DNA from: an uncultured Porphyromonadaceae bacterium
GTDB lineage: Bacteria > Bacteroidota > Bacteroidia > Bacteroidales > Muribaculaceae
Reading direction: 5' to 3'
Assembly (NCBI GenBank): GCA_900548705.1
Contig: URLF01000001.1
Location: 5,550-69,549, forward strand
Length of the DNA stretch: 64,000 nucleotides
The translations under genes were made by a program, and so were the position numbers. The notes beneath the pieces are model-generated. The model saw only the letters and a list, made by a program, of their open reading frames with translations, made no database searches and had not been told where the DNA came from. Of this stretch, positions 29,123-47,758 are shown piece by piece; within the stretch, counting starts at the first letter, position 1; the number at the start of each line of letters is the position of its first letter.

Positions 29123-30757
29123 TTATTTCAAGTAGATTTTATGAGGAAAGCCATCAAGCATCAAGACATAGACGCCGGAATCCAGATGTCTCAGTGATAT
29201 GTTTTCTGTATGTTCCGGAAGAAGCTTTCCGGCATAAACAGTCACTCCGCTCATTGTTAATATTTTGATTTCTATTGAATTTTTGACATATGAGACAGTC
29301 AACACTTTGTCTTGGACTATGAAATCAAATCGGGATGCGTTATCCATTCCCGGGACTATCCCTGACGCGATTGGTTCATCAGCAAGAGATATGCGGTAGA
29401 CTCCAAGTATCGATCCAGGCATATAAGCATACACTGTGGTTGCTTGGGATTGAGCGGGTGTTTTGCTACCACCGGATGTCGCAGCTGTAGCCGGAACAGA
29501 TATGATTTTCGGACGCAAGTTCTGGTATATTGCCGGAGGATAGGGAAATTTATGCTCAGGAAACTGCCATAATGGCTTGAGTGAGGAGAAATCTGAAATG
29601 TCATTCCAATGGGCCACTTTAAAGATTGTGCCGTCATAGGAATTATATTTGTAAGGCAGAACAAGGAATGTTTCATCCGCGACCTTTACAGGGAATGCCC
29701 CGAAACAGTGGGTGTCGGCATATGACAGGTCAGGATTGGACAACATGCTTGTCTGATTGAGCATTGGATATTCCCCTTGGGCTGATACTGTATGCAGTTC
29801 ACCATTGTCTTTATATAATAGGAGAGGGGAGTGTTGCATCGGATGGTCAGTGGTGCCGAATCCTTGTACGATATGATGGGTTTCATCAATCTCTGCCACA
29901 TAGAACATCCCTTTCCAAGGAGAACCAGAGGAAGCATACGTGCGGGTGTCAAACGTATAGTCTACCGAATCATAACGGGTTATTTCAATTTCCGGCAGGG
30001 TTGCCCCTTTCGAGAAAATCAATTTACAACGTGAGGGGAAATAGGTATGCCCGGCGGTGTTTCCCCAGAAATGCCAGCAACCTATCGAAAACTGGAAGTC
30101 GCCCGACAGCAAATCTCCGGTCATTCCCAACCATTCGTAATCGGTCTGGAAGTGGTGACCAATCTCAGTGTCCTCAAATTCAGGGGCGATGGTAGTGATG
30201 TATTCAAGATTCCGGTCATATACTTGTATAAACAACGACATCTTTTTACCAGATGTTGTCGCCTTCAACCCGACCACCGCGATATGCCCTGCATCATCCG
30301 ACATCACATAGCGTTGGAGCGACGAATCGACAAGATCACCGGAGAAATCAGATTGCAAATCGGGAAGTGCCTCACCAGTGGAGGCGTTGAATCTTCTAAG
30401 GGTTATTGTTTCGCCGGGAGATTGATATTTCTCCACATACACATATACGATGTCATCTATGACAAAGATGTTGTGATTGTTTTGATTTGGGTCATTGATG
30501 CCATCGCCGCCTCCGGCTTTTGACATATCCATCTCCCATAAAGCCGTCATAGAGGCATATTTTTCCGTGGCACCTGAATTGCCGGACAATTGCATTTCGT
30601 TGAATGTCGAAAGCTCGTCCGGAGCGGCAAGCCCTTCAGCCGACTGGGAATATGTAGCCAATGAGATGCTAAGCATAAATCCTATAAGGGTTACCCTTAT
30701 GGCGCCAAAGGCGCCATAAGTTTTGCGGAAACCCTGCGATTGGAAAATTTTATTCAT
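29123..30757 (-). CDS. secreted protein with a type IX secretion (Por) C-terminal sorting domain; function unknown
   Basis: N-terminal signal peptide. The C-terminal 80 aa (...KVLTVSYVKNSIEIKILTMSGVTVYAGKLLPEHTENISLRHLDSGVYVLMLDGFPHKIYLK) match the T9SS CTD beta-sandwich pattern. Confidence 0.65.
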   Translation of the reverse strand: MNKIFQSQGFRKTYGAFGAIRVTLIGFMLSISLATYSQSAEGLAAPDELSTFNEMQLSGNSGATEKYASMTALWEMDMSKAGGGDGINDPNQNNHNIFVIDDIVYVYVEKYQSPGETITLRRFNASTGEALPDLQSDFSGDLVDSSLQRYVMSDDAGHIAVVGLKATTSGKKMSLFIQVYDRNLEYITTIAPEFEDTEIGHHFQTDYEWLGMTGDLLSGDFQFSIGCWHFWGNTAGHTYFPSRCKLIFSKGATLPEIEITRYDSVDYTFDTRTYASSGSPWKGMFYVAEIDETHHIVQGFGTTDHPMQHSPLLLYKDNGELHTVSAQGEYPMLNQTSMLSNPDLSYADTHCFGAFPVKVADETFLVLPYKYNSYDGTIFKVAHWNDISDFSSLKPLWQFPEHKFPYPPAIYQNLRPKIISVPATAATSGGSKTPAQSQATTVYAYMPGSILGVYRISLADEPIASGIVPGMDNASRFDFIVQDKVLTVSYVKNSIEIKILTMSGVTVYAGKLLPEHTENISLRHLDSGVYVLMLDGFPHKIYLK

Positions 30758-31214: not shown

Positions 31215-31742
31215 ATGGATACCGCAGCTAATTGGTATGCTATAAAGACCCGAAGCGAGGCCAACACTCAGGCTTTCCTCGAAAGTATCGGGGTGAAAGT
31301 ATATGCTCCTCGCACGAATATGAGGAAAGCAGACCATAGTTCACAGATATCCAGACATTACATTATTCCACGGGTTTTGCTGATCGAAGCTTCTGAAGAG
31401 GAAGCCTTGCGCCTGGAGAAGGAAAGCAGGGGAGAGGAGCGTCCGGTTTCACCATTCTGGATTTACCGTCTACCCGGCTCAGACCATATTCAGCCTATAT
31501 CGGCAGAGGAGTTCAATCTTTTCCGGTTGCTAACAACCGATGATCCCGAAACCCAGTGTCAGATTTATTGTAAGACCGACTTCCATATCGGACAGCATGT
31601 ACGCGTGACCGCCGGCCCATTCGCTGGCTACACAGGCTACACCCGACGCATCCGCAACAACAAACATGTGGTTGTCGAAATCGAAGGCCTCTGCGCCATC
31701 GCCCTCCCCTTCATCCATCCCTCACTCCTCCAGCCTCTCTGA
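31215..31742 (+). CDS. UpxY-family (NusG/RfaH-like) transcription antiterminator, first gene of the CPS locus
   Basis: 175 aa. NGN domain start (NWYAIKTRSEANTQAFLES). C-terminal KOW-like segment (FHIGQHVRVTAGPFAGYTGYTRRIRNNKHVVVEIEG). Preceded by a roughly 450-bp leader. Confidence 0.8.
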   Translation: MDTAANWYAIKTRSEANTQAFLESIGVKVYAPRTNMRKADHSSQISRHYIIPRVLLIEASEEEALRLEKESRGEERPVSPFWIYRLPGSDHIQPISAEEFNLFRLLTTDDPETQCQIYCKTDFHIGQHVRVTAGPFAGYTGYTRRIRNNKHVVVEIEGLCAIALPFIHPSLLQPL

Positions 31743-32479: not shown

Positions 32480-33655
32480 GTGGCTATAACTTATGCGGTA
32501 AGCACCTCTGCAATTTTCATAAACAGCTTCAATATGTCAAATAATACGCAACCCACAAACGATTATAAGAATAATCTTAACGAATACTATAGCCGATACG
32601 GCGGCTTTTGGGTTTATCCCGAATTACTCGATTTCTGCTACCTTGTGAATCCATACTTCAAAAAATCAAAAATTATTGATGAAATGGAGGCTAATTTCAG
32701 AACTCTTGTATCTGAATATCCAGCCGGGATGACGGTAAACTCGGCTCTCGCTTCTGAGTGCTGGGGTATAAACTCCGAATATATAGTACCGGGGAACGGA
32801 GCAGCAGAGCTTATCAAAATCCTAATAGAGGACCTTGAGGGTAAATTAGGGATAATCCGACCAACGTTTGAAGAATATCCAAATAGGTTTGATAAAAACA
32901 GATTGGAGGTTTTCATTCCCAGCAACGAAGATTTCAGATATGATGAGAACGACCTAATAGATTATTTCGGCCGTCATCCCGTAGATACCATATTGTTAAT
33001 CAATCCGGATAATCCAAGCGGAAATTTCGTTTCCAAATCAGGACTCCTGACGTTGGCTGACTGGTGTCTGGCAAAAGGAGTTAAACTGATACTTGATGAG
33101 AGTTTTGTCGATTTCAGCGTCGGATTTGAGCATAACTCATGTCTATCAAATAAAATATTGGAGCGATATCATAATCTGACAGTAATAAAATCCATATCAA
33201 AAAGTTATGGTGTCCCGGGACTGAGACTTGGCATTCTATGCAGCTCTGATACAGACCTCATACACTCTATGAAAAAAAGGGTAAGCATATGGAATATCAA
33301 CTCATTTGCTGAATTTTTCATGCAAATATACCCTAAATATCGTCAGGACTATATATCGGCATGCAATCATTTCATAGAGACGCGTGACGAATTTGAACAT
33401 AACTTAAAGAAAATACCCTTTATAAGGGTAATGCCATCGCAGGCCAATTATTTTTTTATAGAAGTGTTGCCTCCATATAGCCCCACAGAGCTATGTGGAC
33501 GACTACTCAAAGAACACAATATCCTCGCCAGTGCCTGTCTAGCTAAAAAAGGGATTACCCCCGACAGGTACATGCGGATAGCCGTGCGGAATAAAGCGGA
33601 CAACAATCGATTGGCACAGGCTCTTATGTCTTTCTTTAATCACAAACATCTTTAA
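32480..33655 (+). CDS. class I/II PLP-dependent aminotransferase, HisC/CobD-like (histidinol-phosphate aminotransferase / threonine-phosphate decarboxylase family)
   Basis: Motifs VPGNGAAELI, INPDNPSGN, LDESFVDF and the PLP-lysine context IKSISKSYGVPGLRLGI. The start may instead be ATG 32534 (MSNNTQ...). Confidence 0.75.
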   Translation: MAITYAVSTSAIFINSFNMSNNTQPTNDYKNNLNEYYSRYGGFWVYPELLDFCYLVNPYFKKSKIIDEMEANFRTLVSEYPAGMTVNSALASECWGINSEYIVPGNGAAELIKILIEDLEGKLGIIRPTFEEYPNRFDKNRLEVFIPSNEDFRYDENDLIDYFGRHPVDTILLINPDNPSGNFVSKSGLLTLADWCLAKGVKLILDESFVDFSVGFEHNSCLSNKILERYHNLTVIKSISKSYGVPGLRLGILCSSDTDLIHSMKKRVSIWNINSFAEFFMQIYPKYRQDYISACNHFIETRDEFEHNLKKIPFIRVMPSQANYFFIEVLPPYSPTELCGRLLKEHNILASACLAKKGITPDRYMRIAVRNKADNNRLAQALMSFFNHKHL

Positions 33656-33721
33656 TATTGTGTAGCATTATCGCACAAGCTAAAAATATTCAATAACCCA
33701 AAAGATAAATCTACATCGATT

Positions 33722-34210
33722 ATGAAAATTCCAAAACTCATACGAAACACATCGATTTATAAGATAGTACGACAACTTTATGTTGCCCGTATAATTGGTA
33801 ATCAATTGATTAAAGCTGGAATTACAAAGTATTCGAAAATAAACCACCAATTGGTTCATTAAACGATTTTATCGATGCATCAGAAGAGACCTTGTGTCGT
33901 ATGACGAATTTTTTCATCAGTATAATTTTTATGAACGAACAGAATCAGAAAGAAAAGAATTTGTGTCTGATGTAATAATGACATTTATTACCACAGCTAT
34001 CTCACTGATAACATAAAGAGGATTTTATGGAATAAGGTAAACACACTCAAAACATTTCATTATCTGATATCGCGTAGATGGCTTCATGCAGGAGAAGCTT
34101 CTTATGTAGATTTCAAAAATCTTATAATGTAAATGATGTTATTGTCAAACCGATAGAATCAAGTTGTGGACACTGGTTTGACATTCCGTGGATTTATAAA
34201 TGTCTTTAAA
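33722..34210 (+). pseudogene. degraded remnant of a second sugar-transfer-associated ATP-grasp gene
   Basis: Three short frames with family-like fragments: MKIPKLIRNTSIYKIVRQLY.. (N-terminus); ..SYDEFFHQYNFYERTESERKEFVSDV.. (compare FYFMYGLDVKSDEERKEYMNYQ in the intact paralog at 36858); ..IVKPIESSCGHWFDIPW.. (ATP-grasp KPxxGSxG-like). The pieces are in different frames separated by stops. Confidence 0.4.
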
Positions 34211-34284
34211 GAAAGGGAATAAGACTAGATTACAACAGCTTTTAAGTTGAGATTGGTTTAGTTATATAAAGTACTCGAACATAT

Positions 34285-35733
34285 ATGTCTCATTCAAAAG
34301 TCTTTTCCGGAGTTATTTGGGCTTCTGTGCAAAGATTTGGGAATTTAGCAATCAGCTTTGTTTCCACAATGGTCATGGCAAGGCTCCTTTCGCCGAATGA
34401 ATTTGGAGTAATAGGCATGCTCATGTTTTTCTTGGCATTAGCTCAGACTTTTGTTGATAGTGGACTGGGGGCTGCACTGGTGCAGAAAAAAGAACTTGAT
34501 ATATTAGATACGAGCACGGCATTTTATATCAACATAATATTATCATCTGTACTATATTGTATTTTATTCTTATGTGCCCCGGCAATCTCAAGATTTTATA
34601 ATCTTGAGATTGTATGTCCTCTGCTTAGAGTGATGGGGCTGACACTATTTATTCAGGGGTTTACATTAGTCCAAACCTCACTATGTCAAAAGGAATTACA
34701 ATTCAAAACGCTTTCAATATGCAACCTGACCGGCTCAATCACATTAGCAATTATCGGTATATGTGCGGCTTTGGCAGGGTGTGGGGTCTGGAGTTTTGTC
34801 ATCCGGTCTTTGTCCGGCTCTTTAATATCATCCATTTTATTGTGGAAAGCCTCGAATTGGAGACCAAAATTCATTTTCAGCAGGGATAGAATGAAGCATC
34901 TATTTAATTTCGGAGGCTTTATGCTTTTATCGAGTCTGTGCATAACGATTTCTAACAATGTTCAGTCATTGGTTATCGGGAAAATGTTTTCGCCATCAAT
35001 TTTGGGCAAATTTACTCAGGCGAAAACATTAAGAAACATTCCTGCAGATAGCATCCAACAGGTAATCGGCCAAGTTTTGTTCCCTGAATTTTCCAAGCAT
35101 CAAGATCATGATGAAATAATTAAAGACAAACTTAACAAAAGTGTTTATATCCTTTCTTTTCTCGTAATTCCGATGATGTTGCTCTGCATAATTATTGCAA
35201 AACCATTGATTTTGTTTTTTTATGGAGAAAAATGGATTGAAGCTGTCCCCTATTTTCAAATTCTCTGCATAGGTGGAATCCCTTATTGTATACAAGATGT
35301 AAATATAAACGTAATAAAAGCCAAAGGCAAAAGCAGGATTCTGTTTTATCTTAATCTTGTAAAAGCCTTTGTGTTTTGTGGAATGACAATTGTAGGCGGT
35401 ATATATTATGGGTTGCAAGGACTTTTGTATATGGCCGTAATTTATAATGTCTTAGCTTATTTGTGCTTTGCTATAGTGGGCACCGGTATTATAAAGACAA
35501 ACATATGTGAACAACTAAAAGCTATTTCTAAATGCTTGTTTTACGCATGCATTCCATTTGTGGTATCAATGTATCTGAATAGCTATCTTGAAGCCTATAT
35601 GGCATTTATCCGAATCACAGTCATAAGCTTTATATATATTTCAATCTATTTATGTGTTTCTTGGATGTGTAAATCCGAGGCATTGAAATATTTGTTGCAT
35701 CAGGTCTCAATTACCCACAAAACATCAAATTGA
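34285..35733 (+). CDS. wzx: Wzx-type polysaccharide flippase (MOP/PST superfamily)
   Basis: 482 aa, about 12-14 TM helices. N-terminus VQRFGNLAISFVSTMVMARLLSPNEFGV is typical of PST-family flippases. Confidence 0.8.
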   Translation: MSHSKVFSGVIWASVQRFGNLAISFVSTMVMARLLSPNEFGVIGMLMFFLALAQTFVDSGLGAALVQKKELDILDTSTAFYINIILSSVLYCILFLCAPAISRFYNLEIVCPLLRVMGLTLFIQGFTLVQTSLCQKELQFKTLSICNLTGSITLAIIGICAALAGCGVWSFVIRSLSGSLISSILLWKASNWRPKFIFSRDRMKHLFNFGGFMLLSSLCITISNNVQSLVIGKMFSPSILGKFTQAKTLRNIPADSIQQVIGQVLFPEFSKHQDHDEIIKDKLNKSVYILSFLVIPMMLLCIIIAKPLILFFYGEKWIEAVPYFQILCIGGIPYCIQDVNINVIKAKGKSRILFYLNLVKAFVFCGMTIVGGIYYGLQGLLYMAVIYNVLAYLCFAIVGTGIIKTNICEQLKAISKCLFYACIPFVVSMYLNSYLEAYMAFIRITVISFIYISIYLCVSWMCKSEALKYLLHQVSITHKTSN

Positions 35734-35763
35734 TTGTAAGATATAATATAATTTGTAATTCAT

Positions 35764-36861
35764 ATGAAGATTGTTGCCGTTGGTGATATAATGCCAGGAG
35801 GCATTTTAAATATCAAAAAAAATGAATTTATATCTGACGAGCTCAGATGCATACTTCAACAGGGAGATATTCGAGTTGGGACACTTGAGACTGCAGTAGG
35901 AAATCGCCCTGAATTCAACGAAGAGAAAATGCGTCGCAAGGCAGATGTGATTTATGTCCGAGATGAGGATTTGGTCAGACTAAAAGACCTGGATATAAAC
36001 ATCGTATCACTTGCTAATAATCATTTTACTGATTTAGGAGAGATAGGAGCAAAGCATACTATTCGATTGCTTGACGAGATGGGGATACTTCACTGCGGGG
36101 CTGGAGATAACATCGAGAGCGCAAGTAAGCCCGCGGTAATATCCAAAAATGGGAAAACGTATGCATTCCTCGCGTTCTGTGATTGGCGTGATGAGACCGT
36201 AGGTTGGTGTCCATTTGCGACAAATAACAGCTACGGAGTCAATCCTATGACAGATGAATATGTCGTCTCCGAGATACAAAAATATAAATTGCAATATGAT
36301 TATGTAGTCGTGATTCCGCATTGGGGTATGGAATATATTATTCCTCCATCTCTAAACGCATATAGAATGGCTCAAAAGATGATTGAAGCTGGTGCTGATA
36401 TTATTCTTGGCGGGCATACTCATTGTATCCAACCAATTTGGAAATATCGAAACAGGCCTGTTGTATTCAGTATGGGTAATTTCCTATTTCCTGACAGGTT
36501 ACTTAACACCCCTCGTTCAACTTATTATCCTGATGGGGATATAAACATAGAGGAATTGCCCGTCACGTATGGCTATCCGAAATATGTCGACTGTATAACA
36601 TTCAAGAAATGGAATATGATGGCTCGTTACGGACTAATTGTCACCATTGACTTACTTGACAATTCATATTCAGTCTCAACCAACGTTTCATACCTCAGTG
36701 ATGATAATTATCTGACTTTATTCAATGAACAGATATATTATCATAAGAATATACGTCGAGCATCAAAGGCTCTTAACACAGGATTTTATCCTTTGATATA
36801 TACTACGATAACAAATCTCCTCAAGCTTAAGAATCATACCAAGAATTTGTTAAAACTATGA
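35764..36861 (+). CDS. CapA/PGA_cap-family protein (calcineurin-like metallophosphoesterase fold)
   Basis: Family motifs VAVGDIMPGG, GTLET, SLANNHFTD and IILGGHTHCIQP. Confidence 0.8.
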   Translation: MKIVAVGDIMPGGILNIKKNEFISDELRCILQQGDIRVGTLETAVGNRPEFNEEKMRRKADVIYVRDEDLVRLKDLDINIVSLANNHFTDLGEIGAKHTIRLLDEMGILHCGAGDNIESASKPAVISKNGKTYAFLAFCDWRDETVGWCPFATNNSYGVNPMTDEYVVSEIQKYKLQYDYVVVIPHWGMEYIIPPSLNAYRMAQKMIEAGADIILGGHTHCIQPIWKYRNRPVVFSMGNFLFPDRLLNTPRSTYYPDGDINIEELPVTYGYPKYVDCITFKKWNMMARYGLIVTIDLLDNSYSVSTNVSYLSDDNYLTLFNEQIYYHKNIRRASKALNTGFYPLIYTTITNLLKLKNHTKNLLKL

Positions 36862-37982
36862 GCATCTTTGATAAAATAAAACGCACTTACGATTGGGCTA
36901 TATCCAATTTATATGTTAAACCATTGCTTCTTAAGAATTTACTCAGGAATAAGCATTTGTATGACTCTTCTTCATATTACCCTGATAAAGAAGCTCGAAG
37001 TAAACGTCAGAATTTTATTTTTCAGGTGGGACAAATCATAAAATACGGTCTTGCAAATGAATTTTATTTCATGTATGGTCTTGATGTCAAGTCAGATGAA
37101 GAGCGCAAGGAATATATGAATTACCAACCATTTATGATTCGACGGAATTATCTTAATTATGAGCATAATCCTCATAACAGCACATGTATACTCCGCAATA
37201 AATTATATTTTGATATTTTTGCGAACGCAATAGGCATAACGACACCAAAAATCAGAGCATATTACTCTAATGACACACTCTACATATGGAACGACGGATT
37301 TGTCAAAACATCATTTGATGAATTATTGAATTTTAATGATGTTGAGCTGTTTTGCAAGGAAACAGAAGGTGAATGCGGTGTAGGTATATTCAGACTTGTA
37401 ATCCGCAATAATAAAGCGTATATTGAGGGGTTAGAAATATCTCCAAAAGATCTCGAAACAAAAATAAAAGGATGTGAATATATTTTCCAAGAGACTGTGT
37501 GTCAGCACCCTGAAATGTCACGTCTCTATTCGGGGAGCATCAATACAATGCGTCTCGTAACGGTAAGAAGTCTTAAAGACGAGAAAATTCACATTATGCC
37601 GTCAATACTCCGCATAGGTGCGCATGGCAGCTTTGTGGATAACACCTCACAAGGAGGACTTGCTGTTGGATTCGATTTGAATACCGGCCAACTTCATAAA
37701 TATGGATTTTATAAGCCAAAATTCGGACTTAGAACAGAGGTCCACCCCGACAGTTTGGTGAGGCTGAATGAGTTCTACATACCGATGCTTAAAGATGCTG
37801 AAGAAAAGGCCATATATTTCCATACAATGCTTAAGGATGTCCACTCTATTGGTTGGGATATTGCAATTGGGAGAACCGGACCTATATTCATTGAAGGTAA
37901 TGACAATTGGGAAATCAATGGCCCTCAGGTTGGCAATCATGGTTTGAAGAAAGAGTTTGAAGAGTATTTTTTTGAAAAATGA
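36858..37982 (+). CDS. sugar-transfer-associated ATP-grasp (ATPgrasp_ST-like) amidoligase
   Basis: N-terminal F..Y.......SEERKEY signature (FYFMYGLDVKSDEERKEYMNYQPFMIRR). ATP-grasp core (IHIMPSILRIGAHGSFVDNTSQGGLAVGFD, IGWDIAIGRTGPIFIEGN). A 4-nt overlap with capA suggests translational coupling. Confidence 0.6.
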   Translation: MSIFDKIKRTYDWAISNLYVKPLLLKNLLRNKHLYDSSSYYPDKEARSKRQNFIFQVGQIIKYGLANEFYFMYGLDVKSDEERKEYMNYQPFMIRRNYLNYEHNPHNSTCILRNKLYFDIFANAIGITTPKIRAYYSNDTLYIWNDGFVKTSFDELLNFNDVELFCKETEGECGVGIFRLVIRNNKAYIEGLEISPKDLETKIKGCEYIFQETVCQHPEMSRLYSGSINTMRLVTVRSLKDEKIHIMPSILRIGAHGSFVDNTSQGGLAVGFDLNTGQLHKYGFYKPKFGLRTEVHPDSLVRLNEFYIPMLKDAEEKAIYFHTMLKDVHSIGWDIAIGRTGPIFIEGNDNWEINGPQVGNHGLKKEFEEYFFEK

Positions 37983-38947
37983 AGATAATAACGCATCAAC
38001 AGATTAAATCTCTTGGCATAACGCCTCGTCAATGTGTCGAGTGGATTTATGAAAGTTTCTTTAATAAGAATCAGGCTCAGTTGCCGGCAAAAATAAGCGT
38101 CCACCCGAGCGACACCGATTTTTTCACATCGATGCCATGTCTGTTGCCGGAATCAGACAATCTTGAAAGCCCCCGGTATTTCGGCATCAAAGAAGTCCAC
38201 CGCATAGCGGGTGCCACTCCAAGTCTCGGGAGCGATATGATGCTTTATAATGCGCGAAATGGCGAATTATTGGCCCTTGCGGATTGCGATTGGGTTACTA
38301 CAATGCGTACAGGAGCCGTAGCTGCCGTGACAGCAAAGGCACTTCGCAAGGATGGTGCGGATGTATATGGTTTTATCGGGCTTGGCAATACTGCTCGTGC
38401 CACACTGTTATGTGTTTTGGAAGCGGAGACTCAGAAACACTTTAAAATAAAGCTTTTGAAGTATAAGAATCAGGCAGACATATTTATTGAAAGATTCCAA
38501 GCCTACAATAATGTCACATTTGATATTGTAGATACAAAGGAAGAACTTGCCGAAAAATCTGATGTACTAATAAGCTGTATCACAAGTGCTGACGGGCTGC
38601 TGTTTGAGGATGAAAGGATTTTCAAACCCGGCATAACTATAATTCCGGTTCACATGAGGGGATTTCAGAACTGTGACACGGTTTTTGATCGTGTGTTCGG
38701 TGATGACACTGACCATGTCAAAAATTTTAAGTATTTCGGAAAATTCAAGGACTTCAATGAAATAGGAGAAGTGCTTGCCGGACGTGATAAAGGACGCAAA
38801 TCTCAGCTACAAAGAATATTAGCCTACAATTACGGGCTCGCGTTACACGATGTAATATTTGTCTCAAAGATATATGAACTTGTATCTGACAGGTATGACA
38901 TCAGAGACATCGAGACAAACAAGCCAACAGATAAATTTTGGATTTAG
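37979..38947 (+). CDS. ornithine cyclodeaminase / mu-crystallin (OCD)-family NAD(P)-dependent enzyme
   Basis: Conserved OCD pattern: FTSMPCLLP, WVTTMRTGAVAAVTAKAL (T..RT.A) and Rossmann GFIGLGNTARATL. 322 aa. Overlaps the upstream ATP-grasp gene by 4 nt. Confidence 0.6.
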   Translation: MKIITHQQIKSLGITPRQCVEWIYESFFNKNQAQLPAKISVHPSDTDFFTSMPCLLPESDNLESPRYFGIKEVHRIAGATPSLGSDMMLYNARNGELLALADCDWVTTMRTGAVAAVTAKALRKDGADVYGFIGLGNTARATLLCVLEAETQKHFKIKLLKYKNQADIFIERFQAYNNVTFDIVDTKEELAEKSDVLISCITSADGLLFEDERIFKPGITIIPVHMRGFQNCDTVFDRVFGDDTDHVKNFKYFGKFKDFNEIGEVLAGRDKGRKSQLQRILAYNYGLALHDVIFVSKIYELVSDRYDIRDIETNKPTDKFWI

Positions 38948-38948
38948 G

Positions 38949-40100
38949 ATGGCGCATTTGAAAACCTCAAATGGTTTTATAAAGTATCATAACCATTTGC
39001 TCTATTTCGGCAAAAAGGTGATGAATACTAATATTATGATTGAGAATCTCAGGATTCTGTCGGTATATCTTGATAAGATAGACATCAACTGGGGTCCATG
39101 CTTCGGCACACTGATAGGGATTATCCGAAACGATGACTTCCAGCCATGGAAACCTGCATTTGACGTATATATACTCAAGGAGGACGAAGAACGTTTCAAA
39201 GACATTCTGTCGATGCTGAAAGACGAGGGGTTCAGCCTTATGCGCTATGAGCGCAGGGGACTATACTATCTCGAACGCAGGATGGAATACATCAAAGTAT
39301 TTGTACTTCATAAGATAAGCAGCGACATAAGGCACACAGGAGGCTCGGATTTCATTCATGAGAAATATCTTCAGGACACGGTTAAATGGAATTTCAAAGA
39401 CATTGAACTGAATGTTCCGGCCGAAGTCGACGAATATCTGGAATTTCAATACGGAAGTGATTGGATCGTGCCTAAACAGACCGTGTTTTACCGGCTCAAC
39501 ACATTGTCAAAATGGCTACACTGGGGCGAAACATGGATTCAGGACCATCTTCCCGATAGCATATATTACAAGTGGCTACAATATCATCGAGGCAATGATT
39601 TAAGACGATTCAAAGTCAGATGTGCTGACAATGGTTTGCCACTGCCGTCAAACGTGCAGCTCGCCAATCAAAAACCACGGAAATACCGCAGAGTGCTGAC
39701 TGTCGGAGTCTATGACTTGCTCCACAAAGGGCATGTCGAGCTTTACAGACGTGCGCGCGGGCTGGGCGATTATCTGATAGTGGCAGCCCAAGACAGTGAT
39801 TATATCCTAAAGTATAAGCCAGATGCCAAAGTGCTCAACTCGACCGATGACCGTAAGTACATGATAAAAGCCATCCGGTATGTCGATGAGGTAATCACTT
39901 ATGACGACGTGGATAAAATCGTAAAAGATGTTGATTTTGACGTATTCGTCACAGGTCCGGACCAATGCCATGCCGGATTTCAGCGTGCTATAGAATGGTG
40001 TGAAAGTCATGGACGTGAACATATAGTACTCTCTCGCACCGATGGCGTGAGCAGCAGCGAACTCAAAGCTAAAATAGCTGCCAAGACAGCAAAAAAATAA
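38949..40100 (+). CDS. fusion protein: N-terminal LicD-like domain (acidic DDD motif degenerated) plus C-terminal TagD-like cytidylyltransferase
   Basis: N-domain: GPCFGTLIGIIRNDDFQPWKPAFDVYILKEDEERF. In canonical LicD this stretch reads GTLLGAVRHGG[FY]IPWDDDIDI.MPRE, so WDDDID has become WKPAFD. C-domain: (H/T)xGH nucleotidyltransferase motif GVYDLLHKGHVELYRRA plus VFVTGPD / RTDGVSSSELK. The track's 38859 start overlaps the OCD gene, so ATG 38949 is the likely start. Confidence 0.6.
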   Translation: MAHLKTSNGFIKYHNHLLYFGKKVMNTNIMIENLRILSVYLDKIDINWGPCFGTLIGIIRNDDFQPWKPAFDVYILKEDEERFKDILSMLKDEGFSLMRYERRGLYYLERRMEYIKVFVLHKISSDIRHTGGSDFIHEKYLQDTVKWNFKDIELNVPAEVDEYLEFQYGSDWIVPKQTVFYRLNTLSKWLHWGETWIQDHLPDSIYYKWLQYHRGNDLRRFKVRCADNGLPLPSNVQLANQKPRKYRRVLTVGVYDLLHKGHVELYRRARGLGDYLIVAAQDSDYILKYKPDAKVLNSTDDRKYMIKAIRYVDEVITYDDVDKIVKDVDFDVFVTGPDQCHAGFQRAIEWCESHGREHIVLSRTDGVSSSELKAKIAAKTAKK

Positions 40101-40109
40101 GCAACGACG

Positions 40110-40910
40110 ATGAGACAGATAACAGATGTAGCCGAACTCAGAGAACTGCAGATGCAAGTACTTGATGCTATCGATGCATATTGCCATGACAACAATCTGA
40201 CTTATTTCATATCAAGCGGCACATTACTCGGAGCCGTCCGTCATGGCGGATATATTCCGTGGGATGACGATATTGATATTTATATGCCACGAGAAAGTTA
40301 TGAGCGCATACGCCGTGGCTTCAATGATGCAAACGGCCGATATAAGCTTATTGACGGATATAATACTCCCGGCTATCACTATACATTTACAAAAATCGTG
40401 GACACCGAGACCATTCTCATCGAAGGAGAACATCCCGACCGGCAAATAGGAATATATGTAGACATCTTTCCGATAGACTACGTGCCTGAGGATTATGCTC
40501 AGCTGGAAGCTATTTTCAAGAAAAAACAGAGGCTTGATCACCTGCTCATAGCACGCCAATGTCCCATATTATGCACCAAGAGTATCGGAGGGATACTATA
40601 TCGGCTCTATTCTCGTCTAACCACCACTCGTCTCGGGCTACTGCGCAAATATGACTCATTAATCAAAAATGACAGACAGTCATCCCTGGTGTGCAATATG
40701 ACCGATGCCGGGCCAAAATCGCCCAAATCGGCATTCCGGGCCGAAGCCATCGCATCGGATGTGGATATAAAATTCGAGAACAGAACTTACAAAACCATGG
40801 TAGGTTATATGGAATATCTCGAGCACACTTACGGCGACTATATGACGCTTCCTCCCGTTGACAAACGCGTACATCACTCATTTACCGCATACATCAAAAA
40901 TGAACGATAA
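40110..40910 (+). CDS. licD: LicD-family phosphotransferase (canonical)
   Basis: LTYFISSGTLLGAVRHGGYIPWDDDIDIYMPRESYERI and downstream DIFPIDYVP motifs. 266 aa. Confidence 0.7.
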   Translation: MRQITDVAELRELQMQVLDAIDAYCHDNNLTYFISSGTLLGAVRHGGYIPWDDDIDIYMPRESYERIRRGFNDANGRYKLIDGYNTPGYHYTFTKIVDTETILIEGEHPDRQIGIYVDIFPIDYVPEDYAQLEAIFKKKQRLDHLLIARQCPILCTKSIGGILYRLYSRLTTTRLGLLRKYDSLIKNDRQSSLVCNMTDAGPKSPKSAFRAEAIASDVDIKFENRTYKTMVGYMEYLEHTYGDYMTLPPVDKRVHHSFTAYIKNER

Positions 40911-41922
40911 TCCCCTCATATCCATAGTCATCCCAGTCTATAAGGTCGAAAAATATGTAGGCAAATGCATCGAAAGCGTCATTGCCCAGACCTTTGATGA
41001 CTGGGAATTACTTCTCATTGATGACGGCTCTCCGGATTCAAGCGGAGATATATGTGACCACTATGCGGAAACAGACCATCGCATACGTGTGTTCCATATA
41101 CCCAACGGAGGCGTAAGCGCCGCCCGCAATCTCGGAATTGACAACGCTCGCGGCCGCTGGATAACATTCATCGACAGTGACGATTGGGTGGAACCGGAGT
41201 ATCTCGCAGATTTTATGAAACGAAATCCCACACCAAAATCTATAGTGGTGAGTGGATTAAAAACACATACTCCTCAAAGAATCTATGAGTCGTTCAGATA
41301 CGAAGATCATAGTACCGTCAATGGTGTTAAAGCCTCTAATCTAATTGTTGTGTGTGACTTATTCCGAGATGGGGGGCCTGTAAATAAATTATTCGATTTG
41401 AATTTAATAAAACAAAACAATCTTAAATTTCGCAGAGACTTATCATTTCATGAAGACCACATTTTTGTGTACTCTTATTATTTGTTAATCGAAAATATAA
41501 TTACTTCAAGATACTGCGGATACCATTATATGTATTATGGAGAGCAGTCAAAAGATTCGTTGTCCAGATTAGGGAAGAAGAATATTAATGGTTTATTGAA
41601 GGCATCTGACATTTTTCTTGATCTTATGCCAAAATTATTTGGATACTTTAATATATCTGATAACGAGTACCAATCTAAGGCAATTACTCTGACCGGATAT
41701 TCACAACGTATTTTGGCCATATATAACGCCTGTTTTATTTCTGATGACCGGACGTATAAAATCGTACTAAAAAATGAAAGGTCTAACATTCGGATTATAC
41801 GGAAGAAATATTATAACCCGTCATTAAAGAGACGTGTGTTCATGTTTTTAGCTTCTCTTCCATTAGGATTGGGGAGATTTAGTATCGGCTCTATTAGATG
41901 TATTTTTAATTTATTAAAATAA
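40900..41922 (+). CDS. family 2 glycosyltransferase
   Basis: ISIVIPVYKVEKYVGKCIESVIAQTFDDWELLLIDDGSPD and the DxD context FIDSDDW. Its start ATGAACGATAA overlaps the licD stop. Confidence 0.8.
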   Translation: MNDNPLISIVIPVYKVEKYVGKCIESVIAQTFDDWELLLIDDGSPDSSGDICDHYAETDHRIRVFHIPNGGVSAARNLGIDNARGRWITFIDSDDWVEPEYLADFMKRNPTPKSIVVSGLKTHTPQRIYESFRYEDHSTVNGVKASNLIVVCDLFRDGGPVNKLFDLNLIKQNNLKFRRDLSFHEDHIFVYSYYLLIENIITSRYCGYHYMYYGEQSKDSLSRLGKKNINGLLKASDIFLDLMPKLFGYFNISDNEYQSKAITLTGYSQRILAIYNACFISDDRTYKIVLKNERSNIRIIRKKYYNPSLKRRVFMFLASLPLGLGRFSIGSIRCIFNLLK

Positions 41923-41925
41923 CTT

Positions 41926-42535
41926 ATGGATACGGAATACACAAGGCGAGTAACATCGAAATCGTTGATTCGTTTCTTAGTTGGAATATTAATACGCGTG
42001 CCGTCTTTTATAAAATACAGGTATTCGGCTTGGATTGGTAGACGACGCGGTGCCAAGATTGGGAACAATGTTACCTGTTTCAGTCGCTAAACAGATAGAT
42101 GGAATGACCACGATTGAGAGCTACGTGTCAATAAGTCATAGCGTGGAGTTTACGTCGATGAAATATCCTTTTGTAATCAAAAATAATTCTATAATTGGAG
42201 AAAATGTGATGTTTATATTAAGCACACATGACATAGACTCTTCTGAATGGACTCACATTCAATCGCCAAGCAAAGAGGGGAATGGTTTAGTAATAGAACC
42301 GTATGTCTGGATATGTCCACATTCAATTATATTACCCTCGGTTAAGAAAATTGGATATGGTGCGGTAATTGGAGCCGGGAGTGTGGTTACCAAAGATGTG
42401 CCGCCAATGGCTGTTGTCGGTGGTAATCCGGCAAAATTTATTCGCGAAAGAAAGACAGTGCATAAAGATTTGTGCGTTGAGAGCCTGCTTGGAGGCGACC
42501 TAATAACATATATAAGAACATACCTGGATAAATGA
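41926..42535 (+). pseudogene. WcaF-like hexapeptide O-acetyltransferase, apparently frameshifted near 42080-42090
   Basis: Frame A (41926-42090): [54 protein letters not shown]. This matches the WcaF-type N-terminus YRWRAFLLRLFGAKIGKNV and the paralog at 47204 (LRLFGAKIGRGV). Frame B (to 42535) carries the rest of the beta-helix (...STHDIDSS...[49 protein letters not shown]). Confidence 0.5.
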
Positions 42536-43671
42536 AAATTGCGGTAGTTACTCCTGGCCGTGCACATCTGCTCGATATGGCAATTCAACTACTTAATAAC
42601 GGGCATGATGTGAAATTGTATACAATGGTATCCAAAAAGCGTTGTGAATCTTTTGGATTTCCTGCTGAAAGGGTTATCTCTTTTTTTGCCTTATGTGCGC
42701 CATTGATGCTCATTTTCAGGAAAGTAAAATTACCGGGGGACTATAATCGTCATCTCTACTACTACATAGTCAGACTTGTTGACAAACTGTCAAGTATCTT
42801 TCTGGATAAATGTGACCTACTTATAGGTATCAGTGGATGTGCCATAATAAGCGCTAAGAAAGCCCAAGATAAATATGGTGCACAATTCTTTTGTGATAGA
42901 GGGTGCCGTCACATATTGTCACAGGATGAGATATTAAAGGCAATACCTACCGCAGAGCAGGTATATACCAAGGATATAAAAAACGAATTAGAACAATATA
43001 GAATCGCAGATAAGATAATTTTGCCATCACAACACACGCAAGAGAGTTTTGAAGAAAAAGGATTTGTATCTGACAAGTTGTTTGTAAATCCATATGGGGT
43101 AAATATCTCGATGTTCCGGCCGACAATATTGTCACAGGATTCTTTTGATATTATTTTCGTAGGCAATTGGTCATATCAAAAAGGTGTGGATATATTGGTT
43201 GAAGCGTGTCGCAAAGGCGGTTTTTCGTTATTACACGTTGGAGCAATTGCTGATTGCCCGTTTCCGGCAAATGAGAGTTCACAGTTTTGCCATGTGGAGC
43301 CTGTAAATCAGCCTGAGCTAACTAAATACTACTCCAAGGCCAAAGTATTATGTCTGCCATCCCGGCAGGACGGTTTTGGACTAGTTCTTTTCCAAGCAAT
43401 GGCCTGTGGTTTACCGCTGGTTTATTCGCACACGACAGGTGGACCTGATTTGAAAAAATTAGTCAATAACAGTGATTATCTGTTTGAGACGCCGTTAGAG
43501 ACTGCTGATTCTGTACGCGAAACTTTGCAAAAGGCTTTACAAAAAGCAAGACAGCAGACTGTAGGGAAGCCGCGCAAATATCTTCCAGATGAATCTCTTG
43601 CCAATATTTCATGGGAAGCATATGGCAAGCGATATAATGATTTCCTCCAACAACAAATGTCATACAAATGA
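42532..43671 (+). CDS. family 4 (GT-B) glycosyltransferase
   Basis: C-terminal GT4 sugar-donor domain with [23 protein letters not shown] (EX7E-type). 4-nt overlap with the upstream gene. Confidence 0.75.
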
Positions 43672-44939
43672 ATCAGTGCTTGACTTTGTTTTTCGTTTAT
43701 ATTTTCCTTGAAGGTGTTTTAAGGAAATGGATTTTACCCGGAGTACCGGGTTCATTGCTTTATGGCATAAAATACCTGTTACTTTTAGCTATCATAGGAA
43801 TCTATTTATCTAAGAACAAATCCGAATCACAACCGATTGTTACTCCTGCAAGCAGGGCTTACAAAATATATGCCTTCATTGTCATATTATCTGCACTTAC
43901 AATAACAGGGGCGACAAACGGCTTTGCAGCGGGTATAATAACAATTGTTCAGTATACATCGCCAATAATACTTATAAGTGTTATACCAATATGGCTTGAC
44001 TCTCCGAGGAAACTTAAGCAATTTTTGATATACGGGTGTTTCATATCATTTATAGCCCTTATTCTTGCAGTGGTTCAGTATTCGAGCTCTCCGACAGCAT
44101 TAATAAACAAGTATGCAACGGATATGGATACTGGCATTGCAACAGTAGGAGGTGCCGCTAGAGTGTGCAGTGTGTTTTCATATCTTACGCCATTTGGAGA
44201 TTTATGCCTTGTCATTTTGTCTTTTTCGGCCATGCTACTGTCATTAAGGTGGGAAAAAATGACGAGGTGGGTGTTGATAACATTGTTGTTGCTGTCGTTG
44301 CTCGGATGTCTGATGACCGGCTCGCGAAGCGTAGTGCTTTTAGGTTGCGTCTATCTTGTTTGTATCGCGTTGTATCAAGGTTTTTATAAACAGAGATGGC
44401 ATCTGATATATATCATAGCATTGGTTGCAGTAGGAGGATATTTTTATTATAATGCTTACGGTATTGAGGCAATTGATAATTTTATATCCCGGGTTAATCA
44501 TGCTTCACATGATGTTGATACGCGCATAACACGTCAATTCGACATAACTCGAATGTTCGATTATTCAGGGGCGTTTGGGAATGGTGCCGGCATTGCAAAC
44601 ATCTCGACACAGCCGTTCCTGGTTCATAAATCCGAGGTCGACTGGGAAGAGGAAATAGGTCGGGTGATGATTGAATTCGGATTTGTGGGATTTCTTATTG
44701 TTACCGGTATTAGGATATTCGTGTGGTGTTATATGGTTAGACTCAGCAGGTCTATTAAGGACAGCTATCTGTCTGTCATTTCATGGGCATCGATTCTTGT
44801 AATAACCCCAATGACATTCTATGCGCAGCTGTGTCTCTACAATTGGTTTGCATATATAGTATACTTCACTATGATAGGCCTGAATATAGCGGTAGCACAA
44901 ATGGATATGCGACGTAAATATTCAGCGAATCGTCCATAA
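43668..44939 (+). CDS. wzy: Wzy-type O-antigen/CPS polymerase (O-antigen ligase-like family)
   Basis: 423 aa, about 10-11 TM helices. MTGSRSVVLLG motif. Large periplasmic loop (NHASHDVDTRITRQFDITRMFDY...). 4-nt overlap with the upstream GT4. Confidence 0.65.
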   Translation: MNQCLTLFFVYIFLEGVLRKWILPGVPGSLLYGIKYLLLLAIIGIYLSKNKSESQPIVTPASRAYKIYAFIVILSALTITGATNGFAAGIITIVQYTSPIILISVIPIWLDSPRKLKQFLIYGCFISFIALILAVVQYSSSPTALINKYATDMDTGIATVGGAARVCSVFSYLTPFGDLCLVILSFSAMLLSLRWEKMTRWVLITLLLLSLLGCLMTGSRSVVLLGCVYLVCIALYQGFYKQRWHLIYIIALVAVGGYFYYNAYGIEAIDNFISRVNHASHDVDTRITRQFDITRMFDYSGAFGNGAGIANISTQPFLVHKSEVDWEEEIGRVMIEFGFVGFLIVTGIRIFVWCYMVRLSRSIKDSYLSVISWASILVITPMTFYAQLCLYNWFAYIVYFTMIGLNIAVAQMDMRRKYSANRP

Positions 44940-44961
44940 AATTAAAGAAGTATTAACGATT

Positions 44962-45948
44962 ATGAAGGTTGTTATATTTATTCGTAAAAAACGGGAGAAT
45001 GATAATAGCATTGAGGAGATATTTCATCTCCTTATGCAATATATGGGCACAGATGTTGAGCTTGTAGAATTGCCGTATGGGGATGCGAGTTTCAGCTCAA
45101 TTATAAAAAATATATTGTATGCACGCAGATTTCGCGGAGACGTGAATCATATATCGGGGGAAGTCCATTATATCGCGTTAGGAACCGGACGTAATACCGT
45201 GATAACAGTTCATGACGTATGGACAATTCTCAGAGGAGGCACATTGTCACGCTATTTGAAAAAATTGTTGTTCTTTACCCTGCCTATGAAAATTGCCAAC
45301 AGAATAACTGTGATAAGTAACTTCACAAAAAGAGAAGTGCTTGCAGTCTGTCCATGGGCCTCTGATAAGATTCGAGTTATAGGCAATCCAATAGCTTTAT
45401 CATTGACTACACAACCTTTTGCATCAAAACACAAGAATAAGACATCAATTGTCTTGCATGTAGGCACCCGGCCTCATAAGAATCTTGAAAGTGTGATGAA
45501 GGCCATACATAATTTAGATGTCAGGTTGGTAGTTATTGGACGAATGACACAAGAACAGATTGATATTGCAGAATCTTATGGGCTGAATCTGACGAATTAT
45601 TATAATCTGGAGTATCAGGAAGTGCTGAACTGGTATAGAAAAGCAGATATTGTGACATTTCCATCTTTCAAAGAGGGCTTTGGAATGCCTCTATTGGAAG
45701 CAAACCTGATGGGGACACCAATTATCGCAAGTGATATTGACGTTCTGCATGAGGTGGCTGGTGATGCGGCTTATTATATTGATCCTAACTCGGCAGAAGA
45801 CATAAGGGCAGGTATAATCAAGTTGCTCGGTGATAAAGAATTATACGTAAAACTGATAGGGAACGGATATAAAAACATTCGACGATTTGCTCCTGATTAT
45901 ATAGCAGGACAATACAAGACTGTATACAATGAGATTACTAACAGTTGA
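44962..45948 (+). CDS. family 4 glycosyltransferase
   Basis: FPSFKEGFGMPLLEANLMGTPIIASDIDVLHEV. Confidence 0.75.
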   Translation: MKVVIFIRKKRENDNSIEEIFHLLMQYMGTDVELVELPYGDASFSSIIKNILYARRFRGDVNHISGEVHYIALGTGRNTVITVHDVWTILRGGTLSRYLKKLLFFTLPMKIANRITVISNFTKREVLAVCPWASDKIRVIGNPIALSLTTQPFASKHKNKTSIVLHVGTRPHKNLESVMKAIHNLDVRLVVIGRMTQEQIDIAESYGLNLTNYYNLEYQEVLNWYRKADIVTFPSFKEGFGMPLLEANLMGTPIIASDIDVLHEVAGDAAYYIDPNSAEDIRAGIIKLLGDKELYVKLIGNGYKNIRRFAPDYIAGQYKTVYNEITNS

Positions 45949-45962
45949 TTTTTATTGATAAT

Positions 45963-47740: not shown

Positions 47741-47758
47741 GCCCCCGAATATTACACG

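Follow-up and report, generated by a model that had tools for sequence, protein, structure and literature searches.

In the lic phosphocholine system, and in the PntC system for 2-aminoethylphosphonate (AEP), a 2-aminoethyl phosphate or phosphonate is activated with CMP or CDP and passed by LicD to a surface glycan; LicC and Tde1415 are among the enzymes that activate 2-aminoethyl-type phosphates and phosphonates (Rice et al., 2019; PMC6697681). A second described route is that of the Campylobacter jejuni HS:2 capsule, in which a pyridoxal phosphate (PLP) enzyme (Cj1436/Cj1437) makes an amine phosphate, Cj1438C uses it in an ATP-dependent amidation of chain-bound glucuronic acid (GlcA), and the HAD phosphatase Cj1435 acts last. 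Further precedents concern single enzymes: SMUL_1544 determines the ethanolamine linker of norcobamides; the OCD/CRYM superfamily includes the tauropine and strombine dehydrogenases of sponges, while CRYM and CpIM1 alkylaminate pyruvate; and MslH, the only characterised relative in the PGA_cap family, is a Ca-dependent epimerase of the C-terminal residue of a lasso peptide, and those who described it propose an epimerase role for CapA as well. On the side of structures, N-[(R)-1-carboxyethyl]ethanolamine phosphate is documented on the O-polysaccharides of Proteus mirabilis; we know of no genes behind this substituent. Our subject is a capsule locus of an uncultured Porphyromonadaceae bacterium (Muribaculaceae in the GTDB lineage), within a stretch of 64,000 nucleotides of contig URLF01000001.1 (positions 5,550 to 69,549) that we refer to as the window.

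A preliminary description of the window had singled out positions 32480-38947 and treated four of the proteins encoded there, a PLP enzyme, a CapA/PGA_cap protein, an ATP-grasp ligase and an OCD/mu-crystallin enzyme, as one amidation unit. The same interval also contains a Wzx flippase (34285-35733) that was absent from that set, and it ends one base before a gene for a LicD-like domain fused to a CTP_transf_like cytidylyltransferase domain (LicD-like::CT); neither this gene nor the canonical LicD gene that follows it had been considered. We favour, as the rather more probable reading, that the interval comprises parts of two independent decoration modules within a Wzx/Wzy capsule locus. Module A would build and transfer a phosphorylated head group, and module B pairs the ATP-grasp ligase with the CapA-like protein. 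The six genes concerned are the following.

32534-33655, + strand: CobD/SMUL_1544-like PLP enzyme, module A (PF00155, 2e-28); the open reading frame (ORF) runs from GTG 32480
35764-36861, + strand: CapA/PGA_cap-family calcineurin-fold protein, module B (PF09587, 2.8e-53)
36858-37982, + strand: ATPgrasp_ST carboxylate-amine ligase, module B (PF14397, 1.7e-45)
37979-38947, + strand: OCD/mu-crystallin NAD(P) enzyme, module A (PF02423, 3.3e-27)
38949-40100 (ATG start), + strand: LicD-like::CTP_transf_like fusion, module A (PF01467, 3.5e-14; PF04991, 9.6e-8)
40110-40910, + strand: canonical LicD phosphotransferase, module A (PF04991, 7.3e-43)

All four family assignments of the preliminary description (PF00155, PF09587, PF14397 and PF02423) hold in hidden Markov model searches, and AlphaFold2 (AF2) models compared with Foldseek place the ATP-grasp and OCD proteins in the folds for which they are named, the two placements on which the preliminary description had said that it could be refuted. 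The two 4-nt overlaps that it reported are also present, at 36858/36861 between the PGA_cap and ATPgrasp_ST genes and at 37979/37982 between the ATPgrasp_ST and OCD genes.

Proposed head-group genes in the window and in related loci

Seeding with the ATP-grasp protein gave 77 species-level genome loci as well as assembly contigs, and seeding with the OCD protein gave further contigs. Labelling with domain-restricted phmmer queries yielded 35 unique OCD-containing loci, 32 of them with complete context, and a metagenome scan with a single OCD protein gave 10 loci, two of them from the species of the window itself. Contigs identical to the window come from human-gut metagenomes, and these, along with the name borne by one member of the NrdD 90% cluster, make a human-gut Muribaculaceae host probable. 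PLP and OCD genes occur together in 29 of the 32 context-complete loci, the PLP gene usually lying directly upstream and often overlapping, and ATPgrasp_ST is missing from about 13 of the 15 unique OCD-seeded loci. Minimal operons consisting of PLP, OCD and LicD::CT genes, free of ATP-grasp and PGA_cap, are found in L084, in Prevotella (L099), in Fibrobacter (L086) and in Muribaculum intestinale (L105). These operons are not confined to capsule loci: L099 is a lipooligosaccharide-like locus, and L084 belongs to an abundant Bacteroidota lineage with an OCD cluster of 817 sequences. The gene associations recur in dozens of independent loci and are beyond chance. Those of PLP and OCD tie the two genes to a nucleotidyltransferase and a CDP-alcohol phosphotransferase and not to the ATP-grasp and PGA_cap genes, so that the four proteins first grouped together come apart as a unit, and this co-variation points to a phosphodiester head group rather than to the amide of a dephosphorylated amine.

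The nucleotidyltransferase domain is distributed in a complementary manner. Where the PLP protein is unfused (365-396 aa), the transferase is a LicD-like::CTP_transf_like fusion, in six of six loci including the window; where the PLP domain forms part of an NTP_transferase::PLP fusion (about 603 aa), the transferase is free of the CT domain, in at least 18 loci and with no exception. For the N-terminal domain of the latter fusion, the best matches are LicC (1JYK, 2e-11) and Tde1415, an AEP cytidylyltransferase (6PD1, 1.2e-10). LicD is itself replaced at its position by a TagF-like Glyphos_transf protein (L107:11378-12574, and L028) or by a CDP-OH_P_transf protein (L110-112; at about 11382-11951 in L110), and this interchangeability indicates that the donor is a CDP-alcohol. 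In a Bacteroides metagenome-assembled genome (MAG; L032:1213-6574) the PLP domain is swapped for a full AEP pathway, made up of a CTP_transf_like::PEP_mutase fusion, a thiamine pyrophosphate decarboxylase and a class-V aminotransferase, while a stand-alone NTP_transferase, the OCD, the ATP-grasps and LicD are all retained. AEP is the phosphonate analogue of ethanolamine phosphate. A candidate second case of an AEP-linked OCD, in L096, was rejected, the class-V aminotransferase there being followed by NifU and representing NifS.

In the window, the LicD-like::CT gene (383 aa) starts 1 nt past the OCD stop codon and the LicD gene follows 10 bases further on. The CT domain (PF01467, 53.6 bits) carries the HxGH motif as HKGH at residue 259 of the fusion, and its best NCBIfam model is that of the TagD-type (glycerol-3-phosphate) cytidylyltransferase, at 72.8 bits and under the cut-off. 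An unrelated glycerol-phosphate system formed by CT and LicD is nevertheless judged unlikely given the complementarity of the nucleotidyltransferase domains. LicD proper scores 147.7 bits and has the acidic motif PWDDDID. The LicD-like domain of the fusion (38949-39660), with its PWKPxFD motif, is highly conserved among such fusions (L003, L084, L097-L099).

ATG 32534 is the most likely start codon of the PLP gene and gives a protein of 373 aa, the length of most database copies. The best NCBIfam model for the enzyme is TIGR01140, the CobD threonine-phosphate decarboxylase, at 159.3 bits and under the curated cut-off of 290.55; the hisC model scores 114.5 bits, also under its cut-off. The best PDB match is 6OUX (SMUL_1544; 1.7e-41, 146 bits), followed by the CobD structure 1LC5 (1e-28, 104 bits), with HisC structures at 73 bits or less. 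The PLP lysine in SKSYG aligns with the lysine of CobD LTKFY, and the C-terminal phosphate-binding Arg motif RYMRIAVR aligns with RYYRVAIR. With CobD as best model and 6OUX as best structure, the earlier assignment of this enzyme to the amino-alcohol-phosphate type is supported: these matches favour an enzyme of the CobD/SMUL_1544 type, a maker of amino-alcohol phosphates. We predict that it decarboxylates phosphoserine (or phosphothreonine) and so yields ethanolamine phosphate. We take the reaction of SMUL_1544 itself to be the decarboxylation of a phospho-amino acid.

The OCD protein (PF02423, 95.7 bits against a cut-off of 24) has an AF2 model with a pLDDT of 85 and template modelling (TM) scores of about 0.8 to 6T3E, 1OMO, 4BV8 and 4M54, which represent a pyrroline-2-carboxylate (Pyr2C) reductase, an archaeal alanine dehydrogenase (AlaDH), CRYM and SbnB. 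The Rossmann motif GLGNTA lies at 134, the carboxylate triad K38/K71/R110 aligns with the family positions, and invariant His/Arg residues specific to this subfamily surround the active-site loop VHMRGFQNCD. Enzymes of the superfamily work on the C-N bonds of alpha-amino and alpha-imino acids, and the opine-type chemistry earlier ascribed to the family is borne out in the literature by the tauropine and strombine dehydrogenases and CRYM; taurine, the substrate for tauropine, is the sulfonate analogue of both AEP and ethanolamine phosphate. Since the only catalytic domains of the minimal operons are PLP, OCD, nucleotidyltransferase and LicD-like, the substrate of the OCD enzyme must be either the head group or a precursor of it. 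A role in supplying an amino acid (proline or pipecolate) to the ATP-grasp ligase was rejected, the OCD gene being present in ligase-free minimal operons. By analogy, the single likeliest function of the OCD enzyme would be the reductive N-(1-carboxyethyl)ation of ethanolamine phosphate or AEP with pyruvate, although we make this assignment only tentatively. A literature search for OCD together with LicD, or for OCD in Proteus O-antigen clusters, found no paper.

The route that we propose for module A would have four steps. The PLP enzyme would decarboxylate 3-phospho-L-serine to ethanolamine phosphate; the OCD enzyme would then use NAD(P)H to condense the free amine with pyruvate or another 2-oxo acid, the least certain of the steps, giving with pyruvate N-(1-carboxyethyl)ethanolamine phosphate, an opine-type group known on Proteus O-antigens. 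By domain logic, the cytidylyltransferase would convert this to a CDP derivative, from which LicD would move the phospho-head group to the repeat unit as a phosphodiester. Ethanolamine phosphate is the most economical product because of the similarity of the PLP enzyme to CobD and SMUL_1544, the AEP swap and the LicC/PntC-like activating domain; imported choline would not be the head group, since Pfam detects no choline kinase or transporter (LicA/LicB) families among the ORFs of the locus. Gene context thus makes it fairly likely, in our estimation, that the head group is ethanolamine phosphate derived from 3-phosphoserine, CDP-activated and phosphodiester-linked.

Several observations count against this proposal. 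The AEP swap, which is the basis for inferring ethanolamine phosphate, occurs in one locus only (L032). It is possible that the PLP enzyme is a transaminase, for example of the type converting dihydroxyacetone phosphate to serinol phosphate, because it falls below the CobD cut-off, with the HisC models trailing by only a moderate margin. The LicD-like domain of the fusion has PWKPxFD instead of the canonical PWDDDID, and may be catalytically altered or a scaffold. NTP_transferase is fused to PLP and not to OCD, so that the OCD enzyme may act on CDP-ethanolamine, on the transferred group, or ahead of the PLP enzyme. An OCD gene stands alone in L103, and true Octopine_DH-family (PF02317) genes lie beside OCD in L109 and L011, which would be odd if OCD were the opine synthase. 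Finally, orthologues of the ATP-grasp ligase also accompany CDP-polyol-type genes with no amine pathway (L012, L014 and L073).

The alternative that survives best, albeit an unlikely one, recasts the PLP enzyme as an aminotransferase that passes the amino group of alanine or glutamate to a phospho-carbonyl compound, and the OCD enzyme as an AlaDH of the archaeal type (using pyruvate, NH3 and NADH) that recycles the amino donor and leaves the head group alone, plain phosphoethanolamine or serinol phosphate being the group added. The OCD protein does align best with archaeal AlaDH and Pyr2C reductase, with the Lys/Lys/Arg triad in common; AEP transaminases use the alanine/pyruvate pair, which would explain why OCD is kept both with the PLP enzyme and with the AEP pathway of L032; the HisC scores are fairly near those of CobD; and the separate Octopine_DH genes of L109 and L011 could provide opine chemistry where it is needed. 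The nearest characterised relatives of the PLP enzyme are, however, decarboxylases (146 bits for SMUL_1544 and 104 for CobD, against 73 at most for HisC), and alanine and glutamate are so abundant that an enzyme dedicated to their supply would be unexpected. The OCD enzyme shows about 70% conservation between phyla, and its gene is translationally coupled. We therefore retain the decarboxylase-based route to ethanolamine phosphate as the preferred reading of module A.

Octopine_DH genes recur in these loci in more than one arrangement: the gene begins 1 nt after OCD in L109:8001-9969, belongs to an OCD locus without PLP in L011:4916-6001, and is found in L019 and L020 within loci rich in ATPgrasp_ST and PGA_cap that have no OCD. 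Capsule loci of this kind may often involve chemistry of the opine type.

Orthologues of the OCD protein number in the thousands at 65-73% identity, and over 1500 blocks in the assembly collection contain one and the same OCD sequence. The carriers of module A include Bacteroides, Prevotella, Muribaculaceae, Rikenellaceae, Fibrobacter and one Clostridia MAG, among them the cultured Muribaculum intestinale (CP021421.1) and B. cellulosilyticus DSM 14838. The PLP fusions of these two are ANU63178 and EEF89355 respectively, and the M. intestinale OCD protein is ANU63179. The database names of these proteins are all generic and NCBIfam has no specific model for them; a literature search on PF14397/ATPgrasp_ST found nothing, and no paper linking these families. 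A 320-aa OCD-like protein (P0486) labelled 'Myoviridae sp. ctTrm2', with contigs of up to 515 kb, is listed in the cluster looked up for the 602-aa NTP_transferase::PLP fusion of B. cellulosilyticus; it probably comes from a bacterial contig that was mis-binned, and not from a phage.

The ATP-grasp ligase and its CapA-like partner

The 77 ATPgrasp_ST-seeded loci contain 33 PGA_cap genes distributed over 24 loci, and 24 of the 33 directly adjoin an ATPgrasp_ST gene; two to five ATPgrasp_ST genes are present in 40 of the 77. A PLP gene is found in just six of the 24 PGA_cap loci, and 18 of the 24 have neither PLP nor OCD. Module B is thus a unit separate from PLP and OCD, and the PGA_cap protein, mostly found without a PLP gene, probably does not serve to dephosphorylate what the PLP enzyme makes, the role suggested for it in the preliminary description; its characterised relative MslH, moreover, is an epimerase. 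Where both modules occur, the ATP-grasp genes sit between the head-group genes and the phosphotransferase, whatever the family of the latter, and this embedded gene order hints that module B is able to act on the product of module A.

The ATP-grasp protein matches PF14397 at 155.8 bits (cut-off 31.4) over 267 of the 278 model positions. Its AF2 model has a pLDDT of 91, and the top 50 Foldseek matches in the PDB are ATP-grasp enzymes throughout, led by LysX/ArgX, RimK, Ddl and PurK; a PDB sequence search with the same protein gave no match. K167, E172, E346 and N348 are invariant in 24 homologues. As modelled, this is a genuine carboxylate-amine ligase fold, which agrees with the earlier suggestion that the enzyme amidates a uronic acid as far as the chemistry is concerned. 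The uronic acid itself is not accounted for in the window, where Pfam finds neither UDP-glucose dehydrogenase (UGDH) nor another uronic-acid gene (no UDPG_MGDP_dh match among the ORFs of 27-64 kb). The probable function of module B is to couple an amine or amino acid to a carboxylate that the repeat unit carries.

A different set of genes accompanies an orthologue of the window ATP-grasp ligase in L012:7848-9931, L014 and L073, namely a CTP_transf_like::GFO_IDH_MocA fusion, a short-chain dehydrogenase/reductase, an aldo-keto reductase and two LicD genes, with no PLP or OCD; it looks like a CDP-polyol system.

The PGA_cap protein (PF09587, 181.4 bits against a cut-off of 27) has no N-terminal signal or transmembrane segment and should be cytoplasmic. 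Its sole sequence relatives in the PDB are the MslH entries (8GQ9 etc.; 3e-10). When compared with MslH residues D11, E44, N87, H88, D91, H259, H261 and H295, the window protein has N86/H87/D90, H186 and the second His of GGHTH in alignment, and D8 and E42 are present as motifs outside the phmmer alignment; the MslH metal ligand H261 is replaced by Gly188. Candidate roles for the PGA_cap protein are those of an MslH-like C-alpha epimerase of a residue with a free carboxylate, or of a phosphoesterase. In module B, then, the ATP-grasp ligase would join an amine or amino acid to a carboxylate of the repeat unit, here perhaps the carboxylate made by module A, and the CapA-like partner would process the ligation product in one or other of these capacities.

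A more far-reaching reading, which we regard as doubtful, has all six genes building a phosphodiester-anchored 'opine-peptide' on the capsule, in which ethanolamine phosphate derived from phosphoserine would be carboxyethylated by the OCD enzyme, CDP-activated and transferred by LicD. The ATP-grasp ligase would next couple an amino acid to the alanine-like carboxylate so created, and the CapA-like protein would epimerise that amino acid to the D-form. If this were true, the two to five ATP-grasp/CapA pairs of some loci would yield polysaccharide with longer D/L-peptide stems, the product would constitute a new class of glycan decoration, and ATPgrasp_ST, the cytoplasmic CapA-like proteins and this OCD subfamily would each gain a first biochemical role.

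It also seems improbable that module B follows the order known from Campylobacter, with the ATP-grasp enzyme ligating a phosphorylated amine (the PLP product or phosphoserine) and PGA_cap then removing the phosphate, while module A separately adds a phosphodiester group. The C. jejuni amidoligase does take a phosphorylated amine onto chain-bound GlcA with the phosphatase acting afterwards, the calcineurin-like metallophosphoesterase fold of PGA_cap retains the GNH(D/E) and GHxH motifs, and the tight pairing of PGA_cap with ATP-grasp suits two consecutive steps. Cj1438C, however, is a member of PF14305 (TupA-like, 1.3e-37) and not of PF14397, and with a BLASTP E value of 0.19 against the window ATP-grasp protein it shows no detectable similarity, so that common family membership was rejected; 18 of the 24 PGA_cap loci lack a PLP enzyme to provide the amine phosphate, a need that central metabolism could meet with phosphoserine; and the gene for a uronic-acid acceptor was not found in the window. 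Nor is there a Pfam match to a HAD phosphatase among the ORFs of 27-64 kb.

The single amidation pathway first proposed, in which CapA would dephosphorylate the amine phosphate made by the PLP enzyme, the ATP-grasp ligase would attach the amine to a uronic acid, OCD would contribute opine chemistry and LicD/CT would be unrelated (serving, for example, glycerol phosphate), is the least probable of these explanations and very unlikely to hold, for while the family assignments suit each proposed chemistry, the genes are translationally coupled, UGDH genes occur in the related loci L003 and L107 and the CT domain most resembles a glycerol-3-phosphate cytidylyltransferase (by the below-cut-off score given above), most OCD-seeded loci combine PLP and OCD with a cytidylyl- or nucleotidyltransferase and LicD in the absence of ATP-grasp and PGA_cap, the nucleotidyltransferase is fused to PLP wherever LicD lacks CT, the PGA_cap/ATP-grasp pairs are mostly without PLP, no phosphatase is known among PGA_cap members, the single relative that has been characterised being an epimerase, and no uronic-acid gene was found in the window.

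Setting of the capsule locus

The low-GC Wzx/Wzy capsule locus occupies about 31.2-47.1 kb of the window, with every gene on the + strand and a GC content of 0.34-0.45, compared with about 0.50 in the flanks. In addition to the six genes listed above, it has the following features.

31215-31742, + strand: UpxY/NusG-like antiterminator that opens a Bacteroidales-type capsule locus (weak NusG and KOW Pfam matches)
33894-34209, + strand: remnant of a decayed ATPgrasp_ST paralogue, N-terminal third only (tblastn with paralogues)
34285-35733, + strand: Wzx-type flippase (PF13440, 1.3e-91)
40858-47135, + strand: GT2 glycosyltransferase, hexapeptide acyltransferase, GT4 glycosyltransferase, Wzy-like polymerase and two further GT4 glycosyltransferases, the remainder of the low-GC locus (Pfam; GC 0.37-0.45)

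A NusG-like gene is present at the equivalent position in the related locus L008, and in most related loci (L001, L003, L008, L105 and L110-112) the Wzx gene separates the head-group genes from the ATP-grasp genes. PEP mutase and phosphonopyruvate decarboxylase are not detected in the window by Pfam.

A gap of 629 nt, bounded by the PLP gene and the flippase gene, holds the ATPgrasp_ST remnant, which is supported at about 33894-34129 and perhaps extends to 34209. The preliminary description had noted a decayed second copy at this place; the remnant does exist, but it is not a copy of the adjoining ATP-grasp gene (tblastn E 0.08) and matches divergent paralogues instead, those of L010, L014 and L012 giving colinear matches over residues 68-133 with E values of 2e-7, 1.6e-6 and 9.6e-6 respectively. 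It is broken by stops and a frameshift, such that just short disrupted ORFs are left, and Pfam finds no match in the peptides of the remnant because the matching part lies upstream of the PF14397 domain. Relative to the otherwise identical sister contigs L089 and L090, the remnant has a 1-nt deletion in a T-run (in the region of 33988), which amounts to polymorphism of a pseudogene between strains.

Next to the low-GC locus, at 47204-51247, is another small set of polysaccharide genes, which encodes a hexapeptide acyltransferase, a second Wzx, a second Wzy-like protein and a GT2 glycosyltransferase at the native GC content of about 0.50; this layout suggests a mosaic or partly replaced locus. 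About 9 kb 5' of the locus, at 22686-23882, lies a gene for an EptA/EptB-like phosphoethanolamine transferase (Sulfatase and EptA_B_N), of a type that works in the periplasm with a lipid donor and so differs from the cytoplasmic CDP route proposed here. A 544-aa ORF on the - strand (29123-30757), with AhpF on one side and the capsule locus on the other, matches no Pfam family; judged by eye, its C-terminus may be a sorting tail of the type IX secretion system.

Comparison with described systems

Capsule chemistry governs the dealings of gut Bacteroidales with phages, antibodies and host immunity, and to our knowledge very few capsule structures of these bacteria have been determined. Both modules are widespread in gut Bacteroidales and uncharacterised. 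The proposal for module A amounts to four steps that start with phosphoserine and end with a head group in phosphodiester linkage, and through it the carboxyethyl-ethanolamine phosphate of Proteus O-antigens may gain candidate genes; the repeated ATP-grasp/CapA pairs of module B bear on the function of CapA-family proteins in general. The cultured carriers make both genetics and nuclear magnetic resonance (NMR) analysis feasible.

For module B, the nearest solved folds to the ATP-grasp protein are those of RimK, LysX and ArgX, which add an amino acid, through its amine, to the terminal carboxylate of a macromolecule; the TM scores are 0.35-0.5 and the identities 13-16%, and the window protein differs in having a helical N-terminal extension of about 100 residues. 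With MslH and CapA/PgsA the module shares membership of the PGA_cap family, the N/H/D and His motifs, and genetic pairing with an ATP-dependent amide ligase, a likeness that suggests ligation followed by epimerisation of the residue with the free carboxylate. Unlike CapA/PgsA the window PGA_cap protein has no membrane anchor, and unlike MslH it has Gly at the position of His261; compared with poly-gamma-glutamate synthesis, the ligase partner is an ATP-grasp enzyme and not the Mur-ligase-like PgsB, and the substrate would be a glycan-linked residue.

The resemblance to the C. jejuni HS:2 pathway is one of partial logic and not of membership. In common are a PLP enzyme for an amino-alcohol phosphate within a capsule locus, an ATP-grasp-type ligase and a partner with a phosphoesterase fold. 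The parallel was drawn in the preliminary description with the proviso that the protein families differ, and this is so for both the ligase (PF14305 in C. jejuni, PF14397 here) and the phosphatase (HAD Cj1435 there, PGA_cap here), but the logic itself is matched only in part: the window has no UGDH match, C. jejuni has no OCD partner, and the window PLP enzyme is genetically tied to the cytidylyltransferase and LicD rather than to the ligase.

The individual enzymes of module A have closer counterparts. CobD and SMUL_1544 are the best sequence matches of the PLP enzyme and share its PLP lysine and C-terminal Arg motif, although the window gene stands in a setting of glycan and not of cobamide biosynthesis, and its relatives are often fused to a LicC-like nucleotidyltransferase. 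The opine-forming enzymes of the OCD/CRYM superfamily have the fold and carboxylate triad of the window OCD protein, the opine activity being known there from literature precedent. As a whole, module A most resembles the lic and AEP systems, whose succession of CMP or CDP activation and LicD transfer of a 2-aminoethyl phosphate or phosphonate is the one proposed here; Tde1415 is a nucleotidyltransferase fused to a PLP enzyme (PMC6697681), and the NTP_transferase::PLP fusions of the related loci mirror it. It differs from these systems in that the window encodes neither a choline kinase nor a choline transporter nor PEP mutase, in that the phospho-amine would come from a CobD-like class I/II PLP enzyme rather than from a class V aminotransferase, in that nucleotidyl transfer in the window falls to a CTP_transf_like domain, which lacks homology to theirs and is joined to a LicD-like domain, and in the near-obligatory presence of the OCD enzyme. 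Module A would be, in these terms, a Kennedy/lic-type phospho-head-group decoration with an added OCD step, beside an uncharacterised ligase/CapA pair.

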